From an uncultured virus (IMG/VR IMGVR_UViG_3300044701_002172) (lineage: Duplodnaviria; Heunggongvirae; Uroviricota; Caudoviricetes), in IMG/VR virus record IMGVR_UViG_3300044701_002172, positions 1 through 64,000 of that record: a DNA stretch of 64,000 nt; one strand, given 5' to 3'. Shown in pieces: positions 1-22,520 of this stretch. The translations under genes and the position numbers were made by a program. The stretch's first letter is position 1, and each line of letters opens with the position of its first letter. Under the pieces are notes generated by a model, which did not search any database, was not told the origin of the DNA, and saw only the letters and a program-made list of their open reading frames with translations.

Positions 1-571
1 TGTGTTCTGCCTGGAAAACAAGCATGTAGTTGAAAGTTCCCGAAATCCCAAGAGGCATTGCGTCACTGAAGGATCCTTGACCAAAGGGATAGACCAGGAA
101 CACTGCAGAAGCAGCAGCAACGGGTGCTGAGTAGGCAACACAAATCCAAGGACGCATGCCCAATCGGTAAGACAGTTCCCATTCACGACCCATGTAGGCA
201 TAGATACCAATCAGAAAGTGGAAGACGACCAGTTGAAATGGTCCACCATTATATAGCCATTCATCAAGTGAATTGGCTTCCCAGATAGGATAGAAGTGAA
301 GTCCGATAGCATTGGAACTAGGAACAACAGCACCAGAGATGATGTTGTTGCCATACATGAGTGAACCAGCAACTGGTTCACGGATACCGTCGATGTCAAC
401 GGGGGGAGCAGCGATAAAAGCAACGATGAAACAAATAGTAGCGGCGAGAAGGGTAGGGATCATCAGGGTTCCAAACCAACCTACGTAGAGGCGGTTATCG
501 GTAGATGTTACCCACTCACAGAATTGTTCCCAAGTATTGCTTTGTCGCTGTTGGGCGATAGTAGCAGTCAT
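1..571 (-). CDS. psbA: Photosystem II D1 protein (5' part, runs off window)
   Basis: Manual translation from ATG at 571: [39 protein letters not shown]...[14 protein letters not shown]...[16 protein letters not shown]; not in ORF track. Confidence 0.99.
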
Positions 572-8579: not shown

Positions 8580-8651
8580 AGCGGGGTATCGGAATCGAAC
8601 CGACGACATCTAACTTGGAAGGATAGCGTTCTACCGCTGAACTAACCCCGC
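8580..8651 (-). tRNA. tRNA-Gly(TCC)
   Basis: GCGGGGT acceptor stem; CT-TCC-AA anticodon loop; GTTCGATTC T-loop. Confidence 0.95.
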
Positions 8652-8665
8652 AAAAAAGTGGGTAA

Positions 8666-9109
8666 TTAAATTACCCGATCAAATTCAAATAATCCAGAAT
8701 CTTTTCCCCAAACAAGTTTGCCACTTTCATCATAGCCAGCGTCTCTAGAAAAACATTTTTCTCGGTTGAATTTAAATTCACTTTCGATTCTAATATCTTT
8801 TACGATACACTCACCACAGGTTTTAGCAACCCAGAAAGCACCATTCCAATAAATGTTATGGTCACAAGTTGGGTTCCAGTCCATATCGAAACTCCGAAGA
8901 AGAACTTCTTCATCTGTAATCATTTCATAAGTATGATATGATTGTCGATATGGATCTGTTTTAGGATAATCGTATTCATAAAAGCTTTGAGATTGTAATT
9001 TGTTTTCACCCAAATCTTTCCAAACTAAACGTATCATAGCATAATTGCATGGATACATAAAAGCTTGGTTTTTATTAGAATACTCGCCTACAATTTCTTT
9101 AAACTCCAT
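8666..9109 (-). CDS. cpeT: CpeT/CpcT-type phycobiliprotein lyase
   Basis: GEYSNKNQAF, PYRQ, SRDAGYD..GKLVWG...FEFDR motifs; likely start MEFKE at 9109. Confidence 0.85.
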   Translation of the reverse strand: MEFKEIVGEYSNKNQAFMYPCNYAMIRLVWKDLGENKLQSQSFYEYDYPKTDPYRQSYHTYEMITDEEVLLRSFDMDWNPTCDHNIYWNGAFWVAKTCGECIVKDIRIESEFKFNREKCFSRDAGYDESGKLVWGKDSGLFEFDRVI

Positions 9110-9114
9110 AAACA

Positions 9115-9262
9115 CATTACCTCCAGGCTCGCCACCTGCCCTTTGACCAGAGGCAGGAAACTGGGCGGGAGAGAGTCCCATCCGCACCACCAATTTTTTA
9201 GAGAAATTGGAAACTCATCGAGGGGGTTCCCGACCAGTGCTGTTATAGTCCATCCGTGACTG
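9115..9262 (-). ncRNA. Structured RNA with two tandem pseudoknots (manA-like motif)
   Basis: GC-rich intergenic segment; two homologous units with compensatory stems; manA assignment is from memory only. Confidence 0.7.
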
Positions 9263-9467
9263 TTTGAAGAATTAGATCTTCATACGCTGCTTCCACAGCA
9301 TCGTCAAAGTCCTCGTAAGGACCGTGATTGACATCATTATACACGTAGTAGAATTTTTTGTCAATCATTTTTACGCTGTAATACGTGATCACTTTGTCAT
9401 CATTGTCGAGTTCTTCGACAAATCTCATGTTAGTTTCAAGCATAGCATTTAGGGTAATTGGCTCCAC
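9243..9467 (-). CDS. Hypothetical protein
   Basis: 74-aa acidic ORF in the gene array. Confidence 0.6.
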   Translation of the reverse strand: MEPITLNAMLETNMRFVEELDNDDKVITYYSVKMIDKKFYYVYNDVNHGPYEDFDDAVEAAYEDLILQTVTDGL

Positions 9468-9483
9468 CAGAGTAAGTTAAGGT

Positions 9484-9723
9484 CTAACCCAGACCATTAA
9501 ACGAAATAACATCATCACTCATAGAACCACCATAATAACTAGTGGGGATATTATTCCCGATACAAAATACATTTTTATTTGTTTCAGTAATTTGTATACT
9601 TACAAGTTTATTATAAGAATCAAACAAATCACTGATAGCAGTTTCATTTTTATCTTGAAGTGCTGTAATAAGTGCTTTGCTTACAGCATCTTTTGCTGTT
9701 TCAATCTGTGATTTCAGGGACAT
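9484..9723 (-). CDS. Hypothetical protein
   Basis: Likely start MSLKSQ with GAGGA RBS. Confidence 0.6.
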   Translation of the reverse strand: MSLKSQIETAKDAVSKALITALQDKNETAISDLFDSYNKLVSIQITETNKNVFCIGNNIPTSYYGGSMSDDVISFNGLG

Positions 9724-9895
9724 AATTTTCCTCAATAACATTATCGAAAAGATCTTTAAGATCATCACCAACTGGTGTCATTACAACACCTTTACCATCA
9801 GGTAGTCGGATCAAAAATAATTCTTGGTTTTTTTCAACCCGATCCATATAAGCATCGAAGTTGTCTTCAAACTCTTGTTGGGTGATTTCAATCAT
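9701..9895 (-). CDS. Phd/YefM-like antitoxin-domain protein
   Basis: MIEITQQEFEDNFDAYMDRVEKNQELFLIRLPDGKGVVM fits the Phd N-terminal pattern. Confidence 0.6.
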   Translation of the reverse strand: MIEITQQEFEDNFDAYMDRVEKNQELFLIRLPDGKGVVMTPVGDDLKDLFDNVIEENYVPEITD

Positions 9896-9913
9896 AGTTT
9901 GTCATGTAGACAA

Positions 9914-9988
9914 TCGGGGTGATAGGACTCGAACCTACGACTTCCGCTTCCCAAAAGCGGCGCTCTAGCCAAACTGAGCTACACCCCG
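9914..9988 (-). tRNA. tRNA-Pro(TGG)
   Basis: CGGGGTG acceptor; TT-TGG-GA loop; GTTCGAGTC; upstream TTGATT-17-TATCAT. Confidence 0.95.
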
Positions 9989-10101
9989 TTGGTTTTCCGA
10001 TGTATGATCATGATACCACAGATCGGAGGAATAATCAAGAGAGAACCCATTAGAGAAACTAATAATGGATTCTCCATAATCGAAACAATTAAATGTCTCA
10101 T
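9979..10101 (-). CDS. 40-aa membrane peptide
   Basis: MRHLIVSIMENPLLVSLMGSLLIIPPICGIMIIHRKTNGV; ATGA-coupled to upstream ORF; last codons overlap tRNA-Pro. Confidence 0.45.
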   Translation of the reverse strand: MRHLIVSIMENPLLVSLMGSLLIIPPICGIMIIHRKTNGV

Positions 10102-10352
10102 CTTACTTCATAATCTAATTTACGAACTTTACGCTGCTTCCTTTGCTCCTGAAACTCCAGATCCTGTCTCGTCAAGATCGATTGATCCTGACGCTTGGAC
10201 TTGGCCCCCGAGATTATTTCTACAAGGGTAAGATCCAAGGCGCTGATATTCCCACCACGGATGCTGGTAAGGTTGGGACACTGACAGCATCTGAGTTGTG
10301 ACGGGTGCTCCTCTAATACTTTCCCGCAATTTTTGCATCTGATTATTAACAT
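10098..10352 (-). CDS. Zn-ribbon hypothetical protein
   Basis: CKNC...CCQCPN...IRGG. Confidence 0.7.
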   Translation of the reverse strand: MLIIRCKNCGKVLEEHPSQLRCCQCPNLTSIRGGNISALDLTLVEIISGAKSKRQDQSILTRQDLEFQEQRKQRKVRKLDYEVR

Positions 10353-10452
10353 CTCTAAGCATTCCTTTTATCGCTTCAAGTTCTTCATGAATATCTTGAT
10401 GATGAAACCTAAGTGGTTTCTGAATCAACTCATTAAACTTTTTCTTTTTCAT
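10129..10452 (-). CDS. Hypothetical protein (N-terminal ~45 aa plausible; tail overlaps next gene)
   Basis: MKKKKFNELIQKPLRFHHQDIHEEL fills the gap after tRNA-Val. Confidence 0.5.
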   Translation of the reverse strand: MKKKKFNELIQKPLRFHHQDIHEELEAIKGMLRDVNNQMQKLRESIRGAPVTTQMLSVSQPYQHPWWEYQRLGSYPCRNNLGGQVQASGSIDLDETGSGVSGAKEAA

Positions 10453-10470
10453 GATTATTTATGAGTGTAA

Positions 10471-10542
10471 TGGGCGATACTGGATTCGAACCAGTGACCA
10501 TCTCCGTGTAAAGGAGGCACTCTACCGCTGAGTTAATCGCCC
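10471..10542 (-). tRNA. tRNA-Val(TAC)
   Basis: GGGCGAT acceptor; TT-TAC-AC loop; GTTCGAATC. Confidence 0.95.
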
Positions 10543-10546
10543 TAGG

Positions 10547-10620
10547 CGCTTCAGGTTGGATTCGAACCAACGACTCACGCTTTAGAAGAGCGTTACTCTA
10601 TTCCACTGAGTTACTGAAGC
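10547..10620 (-). tRNA. tRNA-Arg(TCT)
   Basis: GCTTCAG acceptor; CT-TCT-AA loop; GTTCGAATC. Confidence 0.95.
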
Positions 10621-11065: not shown

Positions 11066-11428
11066 TTACATACGAGAGTAACAGACACGAACAACCCCTG
11101 ATCCTGGAGAAGCGATTTTAGTAAACGCTCCATAAGATAGATCAAGAGATCGTCCACCCACAAATGGTCCACGATCATTCACACGAACAATGACAGATTT
11201 GCCATTCGATTGGTTAGTCACCCGCAACCTAGTTCCGAAAGGAAGGCTTCTGTGTGCTGTTGAATGACCGTAAGCATTATATCTTTCTCCGTTAGCGGTG
11301 GTTAAACCGTGATATCCATCACCGACTCCATAATGTGAGGCGAGGGAACATCCGCTCGCTGCCTTTGCTTGAAGGGGTGCCAGTCCTACAGTGGCAATGG
11401 CTAGAATTGAAAGTGTTTTAAAAAGCAT
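11066..11428 (-). CDS. rlpA: RlpA-like (DPBB) lytic transglycosylase
   Basis: Signal peptide; TANGERYN, TAHRSLPFGT.LRVTN, VRVNDRGPF, LDLSYGAF. Confidence 0.92.
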   Translation of the reverse strand: MLFKTLSILAIATVGLAPLQAKAASGCSLASHYGVGDGYHGLTTANGERYNAYGHSTAHRSLPFGTRLRVTNQSNGKSVIVRVNDRGPFVGGRSLDLSYGAFTKIASPGSGVVRVCYSRM

Positions 11429-11635: not shown

Positions 11636-11827
11636 ATGCCGAGAGAGTGGAACACTCCGATTAGAGAGCCATGGAATGCTCCTATTCATAACACATTAAA
11701 AGCAATAGATAACCACACTCAAGAATACTTTAAGAGTGGCGATAAATGGCATCTACAAAAAGCAGATCAACTTAGGCAATATTTACACGAGTTAAAAACC
11801 TGGATACATCATCAAGAAGGAAGATGA
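11636..11827 (+). CDS. Hypothetical protein
   Basis: 63-aa ORF behind ATAAATA (~11606-11612). Confidence 0.7.
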   Translation: MPREWNTPIREPWNAPIHNTLKAIDNHTQEYFKSGDKWHLQKADQLRQYLHELKTWIHHQEGR

Positions 11828-12063
11828 AATTTAATTTAACCAAACTTATTTTTATAGTTTGTTTTTCTACTGTTGGATTTGTTGGGTTAAATTTCATTGC
11901 CTGTAATTTCATGTTACCAGGATCAATCATTAGTGCTAATGTTCTTGGGGGATTAAAAAACCCCCCTCCTTTAGATTGTAAGGAATCTGAAAGAAGAGGG
12001 TATGAAACTTTATTAACTATTCTCACTACAGTAATTGCTCTACGAGCTAAGGTAGAAGATTAA
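11824..12063 (+). CDS. Small two-TM membrane protein
   Basis: ATGA coupling; two hydrophobic segments; stop overlaps the lysozyme stop (TTAA). Confidence 0.65.
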   Translation: MKFNLTKLIFIVCFSTVGFVGLNFIACNFMLPGSIISANVLGGLKNPPPLDCKESERRGYETLLTILTTVIALRAKVED

Positions 12064-12530
12064 GAAACCCAGAGTTTACCCTCTGCCTTTCTTCTTCTAA
12101 GTAGTCCTGCCTCTACATTACTACCAGGATTACGATACATCTCTAGAACTTTAGGAACGTCGTTCCATTTTTGATCTTTTAAGATACGAGTGATAGTATT
12201 AAAATTCCCAGAACCATAGAAATTAGCGCCGAGATTATAAGCAAAAGATAATAATGCTCCACGTTGATTGTCATTCATCTCACTCCAATAAGGAATTTTT
12301 TGTAGGGCAGGTAAGAATCTATGCTCAACATCATACATCAGATATTCATCTGCTTGCTGTTGAGTAATAAACTGACCTAACATAAAGGTAGATCCATCTG
12401 GTCTACGAGTGCTTCCCCATCCTATTGTAATAGGAGCAGCACCTGTTTTGGGATCTGGGTATGCTTTTAAATGACAACCTTCAAACTCTTTGATTAGTTC
12501 TAGCCCTCGATGAGGAATAGAACTTACTAC
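12060..12530 (-). CDS. GH24 phage lysozyme domain, likely reached by -1 frameshift from the upstream gene
   Basis: Open frame VVSSIPHRGLELIKEFEGCHLKAYPDPKTGAAPITIGWGST...ALLSFAYNLG...GLLRRRKAEGKLW; no ATG/GTG/TTG before the catalytic motif. Confidence 0.9.
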   Translation of the reverse strand, partial: VVSSIPHRGLELIKEFEGCHLKAYPDPKTGAAPITIGWGSTRRPDGSTFMLGQFITQQQADEYLMYDVEHRFLPALQKIPYWSEMNDNQRGALLSFAYNLGANFYGSGNFNTITRILKDQKWNDVPKVLEMYRNPGSNVEAGLLRRRKAEGKLWVS

Positions 12531-13231
12531 TTTTTTACGGCGTCAAAAACTCTACCCCAACCATCATTGCCTTTTGGGCACCATCTACGTGCCAACTCAG
12601 ATCGTTTGTATACCGCTCCTCTACCATTGGTAACAGGACCCGTATAGCCATCGTTAAGGCTTCCATACGGGTCATGAACGATGTAGTCTCCAGCGGGGGT
12701 CTTCCCAATCACAACACACATGTGGCCTCCTGTAGGAGCACTGAGAGGTCCCCTGTGAAGGATGCCAATTACCATTGGACGATTTGCTGCTAATTCTTTA
12801 TCGAGATCAGCAAATGACAAATCATATTTGAATGCAGATTTAATACCATACCCCATCAAGACACGAGTTTGTACAGTATGATCGGTTGTATCCCCAGCAG
12901 CAAATACTTTCTGAACATAAGCATCGTCACCTTTAGGACCTTTCAGTGTGCCTGGTTTAAAATATTCAAGACACATAGCACAAGCAGAACTATTACAAGT
13001 TCGTTGAGCATCACGATAATTATCTGTTTGAGGGAACCAAGGGAAGTTTTCAAGAATATTAGTTGCTTGTTTTTGAACTGATGTTCTGTATGTTTTAACC
13101 CAACCAGAAGTATCTTCTAATTCTTCTGGGGCTGATTTTTCCAAAGCATGAAAAAACATTTCAACTGCTTTTACGTGATTGGGATTCTTCTCATCAAAAT
13201 GTTTAAAGAAGTTATGTAAATTAATTTTCAT
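12527..13231 (-). CDS. C39-like cysteine peptidase (putative endolysin module)
   Basis: WFPQTDN..RTCNSSACAM (Q/C), GGHMCVV (H), VHDPYG (D). Confidence 0.85.
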   Translation of the reverse strand: MKINLHNFFKHFDEKNPNHVKAVEMFFHALEKSAPEELEDTSGWVKTYRTSVQKQATNILENFPWFPQTDNYRDAQRTCNSSACAMCLEYFKPGTLKGPKGDDAYVQKVFAAGDTTDHTVQTRVLMGYGIKSAFKYDLSFADLDKELAANRPMVIGILHRGPLSAPTGGHMCVVIGKTPAGDYIVHDPYGSLNDGYTGPVTNGRGAVYKRSELARRWCPKGNDGWGRVFDAVKK

Positions 13232-22385: not shown

Positions 22386-22402
22386 TTTTGGGTTGTTTTA
22401 AA

Positions 22403-22489
22403 CGGAGGGTGGGCGAGTCGAACGCCCAAGGGCTTTAACACCTCAACTGTTTTCAAGACAGGTTCCGTCGCCAATCGGATTGACCCTCC
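22403..22489 (-). tRNA. tRNA-Ser(TGA)
   Basis: GGAGGGT/ACCCTCC acceptor; CT-TGA-AA loop; long variable arm. Confidence 0.93.
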
Positions 22490-22520
22490 AGTATTAATGG
22501 GGCATTTGCCCCAATATTAT

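Follow-up and report, generated by a model that had tools for sequence, protein, structure and literature searches.

A probable dnaX-type −1 frameshift joins a cysteine peptidase to a startless GH24 lysozyme in T4-like cyanophage relatives

The uncultured virus record IMGVR_UViG_3300044701_002172 (Caudoviricetes, 128.8 kb, 37% G+C) carries in its first half a locus at which a peptidase gene ends on a candidate ribosomal slip site and overlaps the reading frame of a lysozyme. This first half (64,000 nucleotides) is the stretch analysed here and is called the window; all features of the peptidase-lysozyme cassette lie on its minus strand. We consider it highly probable that the locus is a dnaX/IS3-type −1 programmed ribosomal frameshift, from which the peptidase and, less often, a predicted peptidase-lysozyme fusion would be made. 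The lysozyme, lacking a start codon ahead of its catalytic Glu, is most likely produced only by ribosomes that slip one base back at the end of the peptidase gene. The slipping itself, its frequency, and the fusion as the working form of the lysozyme we infer from the sequence and its relatives. At A_AAA_AAG a ribosome translating the peptidase gene would have tRNA-Lys in both sites, paired with AAA in the P site and with AAG in the A site, and would be kept there by a hairpin that starts 5 nt further on. In most cases termination at the TAG that follows immediately would yield the 234-aa peptidase. Some ribosomes would re-pair one base back on AAA_AAA and continue through a short linker into the lysozyme, giving a fusion of ~390 aa composed of an N-terminal module, the peptidase and a GH24 muramidase.

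The layout of the cassette is given in Table 1. Re-reading of the sequence placed the heptamer, the hairpin and the first ATG of the lysozyme frame exactly where an earlier sequence-only reading of this DNA had put them, and re-translation bore out its description of a lysozyme that is intact in the −1 frame, has a TGA just upstream and is startless before the Glu. Past this TGA the −1 frame is open from 12542 and reads RRKK VVSSIPHRGLELIKEFEG...; translation from the heptamer's G yields 156 residues starting VVSSIPHRGLELIKEFEG, with the stop codon at 12062-12060. No ATG, GTG or TTG was found in the −1 frame between the upstream TGA and the catalytic Glu. The ORF (open reading frame) of 107 aa that begins at the first ATG has no active-site region and misses the first ~49 residues of the lysozyme domain. 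AAAAAAG itself is not rare, with 62 occurrences on the two strands of the 128.8-kb record; its frame, its site within a 13-nt overlap of two frames and its conservation set this copy beyond chance expectation. The nearest isolates to the record are T4-like cyanophages of the Kyanoviridae, among which S-PM2 covers the whole locus at ~70% DNA identity.

Table 1. Features of the cassette and tRNA genes in the window
Feature	Position	Strand	Basis or remark
Zero-frame ORF, predicted C39_2-type papain-like cysteine peptidase, 234 aa	13231..12527	(-)	ORF list, Pfam PF13529
N-terminal ~49-residue helical module of the peptidase, which both products would share	13231..13085	(-)	AlphaFold model, homology
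TGA closing the -1 (lysozyme) frame upstream; leaves 13 nt within which the shift must occur	12545-12543	(-)	
Slippery heptamer A_AAA_AAG in the peptidase frame; P-site AAA, A-site AAG	12536-12530	(-)	
Peptidase stop TAG	12529-12527	(-)	end of gene reads GTA AAA AAG TAG
-1 frame ORF: linker and complete GH24 lysozyme, 156 aa plus stop	12530..12060	(-)	Pfam PF00959
3′ stem-loop, putative stimulator: 7 bp, small internal loop, 4-5 bp, 3-nt loop	12524-12496	(-)	
First ATG of the lysozyme frame, 3′ of the catalytic Glu	12383-12381	(-)	107-aa truncated ORF
tRNA genes Gly-UCC, Pro-UGG, Val-UAC, Arg-UCU, Ser-UGA	8580-10620 and 22402-22490	(-)	

Both frames encode recognizable enzymes. The −1 ORF matches Phage_lysozyme (PF00959) over profile positions 1-125 of 125 (E 2.2e-23, 83.4 bits against a cut-off of 22.3) and contains the motifs EFEG, YPDP and TIGWG; catalytic residues of GH24 enzymes are spaced E-x8-D-x5-T. 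Its residues 5-154 align to whole solved GH24 lysozymes starting at residues 4-7 of the latter, and thus the −1 ORF is a whole domain after a linker of only ~10 residues. The peptidase matches Peptidase_C39_2 (PF13529) over residues 62-189 (E 1.5e-10, 42.3 bits against a cut-off of 24). In an alignment of 36 sequences C79, C84, H118, H159, H170 and D187 are invariant, and the AlphaFold model built from this alignment has a predicted local confidence (pLDDT) of 76.6. A search of the Protein Data Bank (PDB) with the peptidase sequence gave no match below E 0.18. The top PDB matches of the model in Foldseek were papain-like cysteine peptidases (2bu3, 7n87, 3erv; E 1e-4 to 1e-3, with only moderate TM scores of 0.45-0.5), namely the phytochelatin-synthase-like Alr0975, the C39 domain of PCAT1 and a Bacillus C39-like protein. 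By profile match and model we assign the protein to the papain-like C39_2-type cysteine peptidases, with cell-wall peptide as its putative substrate.

We next consider how the junction is built in relatives. Loci were collected from four IMG/VR scans (the best 80 matches of each, the first two scans having at least 599 matching stretches each) and from annotated phage records. In a first set of 84 loci, 57 had the lysozyme in a −1 overlap together with an in-frame A_AAA_AAG, 22 had no lysozyme within ~1.5 kb downstream and also no heptamer, and the other 5 were separate genes, own-start genes or an in-frame fusion. The first 211 loci gave 116 distinct 150-nt junctions: 65 were −1 overlaps with the heptamer, 7 were −1 overlaps without A_AAA_AAG, 12 were in-frame fusions, 3 were separate genes and 29 were peptidase only, all of these without the heptamer. 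Peptidase-only genes end otherwise (for example ..QTP, ..QP or ..S before the stop), with no KK terminus. The 65 heptamer junctions comprise 47 with no ATG, GTG or TTG located 8 or more codons ahead of the Glu, 17 with such a codon, and one further locus (L181; L numbers denote surveyed loci). All 7 heptamer-free −1 overlaps have a lysozyme with ATG or GTG at the peptidase stop. The pattern in homologues agrees with the frameshift proposed in the sequence-only reading: startless relatives all keep the heptamer, own-start ones sometimes lose it, and peptidase-only genes lack it. The arrangement persists at only ~70% DNA identity, isolates among them. Furthermore, the codon 5′ of the heptamer was always NNA in the 57 loci (GTA 28, GCA 26, GAA 2, ACA 1); its retention across four different residues (V, A, E and T) marks a constraint on RNA rather than on protein.

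A second line of evidence comes from the RNA structure downstream. For 47 distinct junctions we folded the span from the heptamer to the conserved K-E-F-E-G codons and calculated z-scores from dinucleotide shuffles. A z below −2 was obtained in 41 of the 47 (median energy −16.4 kcal/mol), and pairing began 2-7 nt past the heptamer in 42 of the 47, while same-length control segments of peptidase and lysozyme coding DNA reached z < −2 in 2/47, 3/47, 5/46 and 6/46 cases. The hairpin of the window starts 5 nt past the heptamer, with an RNAfold energy of −13.5 kcal/mol and z = −3.8 (200 dinucleotide shuffles, computed on L005, whose junction is identical to the window's). The stems fall into three clades of unrelated sequence that share one position. 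In the clade of the window (14 sequences), 90.3% of cells are paired, compared with 33-46% when the 3′ partners are slid, and there are 6 two-sided changes; in the second clade (17 sequences) the corresponding values are 97.9%, 30-48% and 4. The covariation score of either clade was reached by 0 of 500 shuffles, a control that takes no account of relatedness. Stem covariation, which the sequence-only reading had suggested looking for, is thus present in two clades as compensatory changes. A single pairing register for all junctions was tried and failed, for two registers exist one codon apart; a joint MAFFT alignment set two stems in different columns, and clades B and C were treated separately. 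A scan of positions 12300-12750 against Rfam returned no family at gathering score and three chance-level matches only.

The tRNA supply of the likely hosts is also of the kind that goes with this heptamer. Synechococcus RCC307 and Cyanobium sp. N.Huapi 1H5 were picked as stand-ins for the host by means of a photosystem gene fragment (96% identity). Of their Rfam tRNA matches, those of ordinary length (at 32 of 41 and 29 of 39 places) include in each genome tRNA-Lys(UUU) and no tRNA-Lys(CUU); the remaining places measure 82-89 nt, as Leu, Ser and Tyr tRNAs do. None of the five tRNA genes of the record is a tRNA-Lys. In E. coli a single tRNA, pairing more strongly with AAA, serves both Lys codons, as is the case in about half of the bacteria known, and A_AAA_AAG is far more shift-prone there than the other heptamers tested (PMC5009743, in excerpt). 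The photosystem II reaction-centre fragment itself (Pfam Photo_RC; 2-490, minus strand) is cut by the record end; its 96-98% identity to counterparts in Cyanobium and Synechococcus genomes from freshwater is a hint at the group of the host.

Natural variants of the junction are found in isolates and contigs alike. In S-PM2 the junction reads GCA AAA AAG TAA and the lysozyme is startless in the −1 frame; the annotation holds the peptidase and a ‘putative lysin’, S-PM2p157 (L001 2534-2752), that begins only at an internal ATG. Both S-PM2p157 and S-CAM7 gp246 (L354 1845-2117) are truncated ‘lysins’ without the catalytic Glu, the one in S-CAM7 likewise being annotated from an internal ATG, and the gap upstream of them is unannotated. 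In S-CAM7, for which one record names WH7803 as the strain used for growth, the peptidase ends GTT TTT TTT CCA CAG TAG, that is, with a G plus eight Ts (L354 1591-1680); the −1 frame from T_TTT_TTT enters the lysozyme, with an 8-bp hairpin beginning 5 nt further 3′. This junction is common to S-CAM7 and two contigs (L355 and L356, 98% and 88% identical). After these, the closest relatives (66-70%) are in-frame fusions devoid of a slip site, and the split in S-CAM7 therefore points to a second, independent origin.

In other relatives the two domains are fused in one frame. The variants L083 (2181-2210)/L087-L090, which are one protein on four contigs, and L091, from another stem clade, read GTA/ATA AAA AAA GTA GAA, an in-frame fusion with the hairpin kept. 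The seventh A is their sole difference at the slip site, and a −1 slip on A_AAA_AAA would terminate after 11 codons. When the natural fusion L083 (395 aa) was compared with 5.8 billion proteins, 3490 matches were obtained at E ≤ 1e-10; both Pfam domains were present in all 120 of the matches listed, in the same order in most and reversed in the rest. In-frame peptidase-lysozyme fusions of 388-410 aa are thus abundant. In PHROG 3617 (405 positions) the peptidase matches positions 1-234 and the lysozyme 246-404, and across the junction ..F-D-V-K-K / V-E-S.. of the predicted trans-frame protein lines up with ..F-Y-A-K-V-E-D.. of the in-frame fusions. Among annotated phages, ACG-2014f has an in-frame fusion of 405 aa and S-CREM1 one of 393 aa with reverse domain order. 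The ACG-2014f fusion (L085 1930-1990; L174, L177) retains GCA AAA AAG in frame with a 6-bp GC hairpin 5 nt downstream, and in this subclade the −1 frame stops after one codon. Its heptamer may represent the E. coli dnaX topology; it could also be due to chance, other marine in-frame fusions lacking a heptamer. The idea that in-frame fusions generally keep the heptamer for a short product was dropped, since it fits only the ACG-2014f subclade (3 distinct sequences).

These variants bear on transcriptional slippage, in which RNA polymerase would add one A within the run of six, so that part of the mRNAs would encode the fusion in frame for unshifted ribosomes. One extra A does yield the in-frame fusion, and the A7 variants show that such templates occur in nature; the T8 run of S-CAM7 is of a length more prone to polymerase slippage, which is therefore more plausible in that phage. 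Six As are short for productive slippage. The process has been described for longer runs, such as that of Thermus dnaX (PMC5009743, in excerpt). Moreover, the run is never longer where lengthening would help, the heptamer closes with G in 65 of 65 junctions and always keeps its frame, and a conserved, covarying structure stands 3′ of the run, at a position acting on ribosomes. We regard polymerase slippage as improbable at this locus.

An independent start of the lysozyme would be another route. Initiation could use a non-canonical codon, either the conserved Ile codon (ATT/ATC) in the ‘IP’ motif or a CTN codon, or ribosomes that terminate on the peptidase gene could reinitiate at its stop; the hairpin would then act as a regulator. 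In L002, L019, L044, L054 and L084, all among the 17 heptamer junctions with a start codon, visual inspection shows that the peptidase stop is overlapped by an ATG or GTG, and L034, L113 and L114 also have such a start, so that translational coupling at this junction is used in nature; the Ile codon of the linker is conserved as well. In the window, however, a canonical start is absent from the overlap and the Ile codon lies inside the stem. An independent start also leaves unexplained the NNA constraint on the preceding codon and the in-frame A_AAA_AAG, which is invariant where the lysozyme is startless and is lost or decayed in the own-start junctions L034 and L113, as expected under relaxed constraint. 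We give this route a very low probability for the window.

The −1 ORF itself appears to be maintained. It is complete in 45 of 47 sequences (155-169 aa; the remaining 2 have no stop within the available DNA), and the catalytic motifs are kept in all 45. The median dN/dS against the window's copy was 0.19 (42 usable pairs), a value that is only rough because dS, at ~1.6, is near saturation. On sequence grounds the lysozyme frame is under purifying selection. The run of As was also checked in assembled contigs (Logan, not reads) from four runs of four different studies, none of them a likely source of the record. All span 12530-12536 gap-free with no indel there, and the only indels listed in the 1172 bases are at 13077 and 13081. 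An assembly error, which the sequence-only reading had named as the way in which the split could prove spurious, is thereby contradicted: A6 is the same in the contigs of the four studies, and A6G recurs in 65 distinct junctions, the isolate S-PM2 included. A broken gene or sequencing artefact, in which an ancestral in-frame fusion lost one base and left a dead lysozyme with the peptidase alone being made, would fit the facts that in-frame fusions are the commonest relatives and that single-base variants of the run exist, but is hardly credible given the intact and selected −1 ORFs, the persistence of the arrangement in distant relatives and the reproducible A6.

Several observations weigh against the locus being a programmed frameshift of the dnaX/IS3 type, or limit what such a frameshift would account for. 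Free lysozyme may also be made by the phages behind the 17 of 65 heptamer junctions in which an in-frame ATG, GTG or TTG precedes the Glu by 8 codons or more. A significant hairpin is lacking in 6 of 47 junctions, of which 3 are own-ATG forms (L002, L044, L084) and 3 are not. The third stem clade (A4; 9 sequences) pairs in 91.5% of cells without a covariation signal: 466 of 500 shuffles reach its score, there being too little variation, and the slid comparison is not informative. The 3′ arm of the hairpin encodes conserved residues of the lysozyme start (G-V/L-E-L), hence part of the hairpin conservation is at the protein level and only the 5′ arm, in the linker, varies freely. Cassettes of the dnaX type include an internal Shine-Dalgarno-like stimulator ~10 nt upstream of the heptamer. 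The sole G-rich stretch upstream here corresponds to the GWGR codons, which end ~19 nt before the heptamer and are equally conserved in peptidase-only genes; no such stimulator could be assigned. The tRNA-Lys result comes from stand-in genomes and not from the host's own, and the near-saturated dS tempers the estimate of selection. Finally, own-start lysozymes without the N-terminal module exist (L034, L113), and fusion is therefore not obligatory for activity.

This N-terminal module (residues 1-49 of the peptidase) is modelled with confident helices at 17-33 and 43-49 (pLDDT 81-93). In phage DSL-LC03 the lysozyme, which is encoded separately, has an N-terminus that matches residues 2-49 at 51% identity (E 1e-12). 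The sharing of the module with separate lysozymes suggests that it serves both enzymes and that fusion would supply the lysozyme with it. Lysozymes encoded by separate genes often have their own ~45-50-residue module akin to the peptidase N-terminus (L003 2102-2770, from DSL-LC03; L048 2178-2792; L195, L202, L206, L092), and another group of own-start lysozymes has a ~45-residue N-terminal extension that looks related by eye.

A wider and distinctly more tentative reading, which we think possible yet rather doubtful, is that a single nucleotide at the junction sets, like a dial, in what ratio two lytic enzymes are made, and that the junction evolved on more than one occasion. Under this reading the A6G form would make peptidase for the most part, plus some fusion, and the A7 form chiefly fusion, perhaps along with a truncated peptidase arising by −1 slippage on A_AAA_AAA; junctions with an overlapping ATG or GTG would yield the lysozyme as a free protein; the T_TTT_TTT of S-CAM7 would be a reinvention of the split; and the shared N-terminal module would target or regulate both enzymes. 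If this were so, frameshifting would set lysis timing or the stoichiometry of wall degradation in a major group of aquatic phages.

The programmed frameshift, if real, would mean that a classical recoding signal governs how a wall-degrading enzyme is built in widespread cyanophages, the laboratory phages S-PM2 and S-CAM7 included, and a lytic enzyme would join the short list of phage gene classes known for programmed frameshifting. The natural series of A6G, A7, own start, in-frame fusion and T8 would make the effect of product ratio on lysis measurable with ordinary phage genetics. Annotations in which the lysozyme is listed as a truncated ‘lysin’ or missed entirely would be corrected, with the warning that gene callers undercount lysozymes in viral metagenomes.

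Neighbouring genes of the cassette were also inspected. An ORF of 120 aa at 11066-11428 (minus strand) has a signal-peptide-like start plus a Cys, and S-PM2p160, at the corresponding position, is annotated as ‘lipoprotein precursor’; the ORF may be another cell-envelope gene in this cluster. On the opposite strand, immediately 3′ of the lysozyme, are two small ORFs at 11636-11827 and 11824-12063 (both plus strand), the second of them hydrophobic, and S-PM2 has two small opposite-strand genes in the same place. These two ORFs are candidates for membrane lysis factors.

Comparison with known systems places the locus closest to dnaX. The heptamer A_AAA_AAG is identical to that of the E. coli dnaX tau/gamma gene, a simple stem-loop likewise follows it within a few nt, and the likely hosts resemble E. 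coli in having tRNA-Lys(UUU) as their only tRNA-Lys; as in the reversed dnaX of some bacteria the shift would give the long product, the zero-frame stop coming directly after the heptamer (PMC5009743, in excerpt). Like dnaX, the locus is predicted from its sequence to yield two nested products with a common N-terminus; unlike dnaX, its gene class is a cell-wall lysin and not a polymerase subunit. The OrfA/OrfAB pairs of the IS3 family use an A_AAA_AAG-type heptamer with a 3′ structure, and there too a shift near the end of the upstream ORF joins two functional domains. Here, in contrast, no mobile element is involved, two hydrolases are joined, and the upstream product is itself a complete enzyme.

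Among phage genes, the tail chaperones G/GT offer a conserved −1 shift with overlapping frames and short and C-terminally extended products, but, as far as the excerpted account goes, they serve structural assembly and shift with low efficiency, whereas lytic enzymes and a dnaX-type heptamer are found here (PMC5009743). Cyanophage fusion lysins such as the ACG-2014f ‘hypothetical protein’ and the S-CREM1 ‘lysozyme’ have the same domains and N-terminal module (57-83% identity to the natural-fusion query); unlike the locus studied here, they are encoded in a single frame, and most marine ones are heptamer-free at the junction. A full-text literature search, with most subscription journals outside its scope, found no report of a frameshift in a cyanophage lysin. 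This agrees with the remark in the sequence-only reading that recoding is unusual in a lysis enzyme. The nearest case is a one-line prediction in the genome note of Alteromonas phage H4/4, where a −1 slip at the end of the endolysin gene (genes 39/40) would lead into an internal virion protein; the proposed position of the slip is alike, and the shifted product, unlike ours, is not a second lytic domain (PMC5658483, in excerpt). The mechanism is a textbook one, and what is new is the gene class, the breadth of its conservation, its absence from the annotations of model phages and what looks like convergence on a second slip site.

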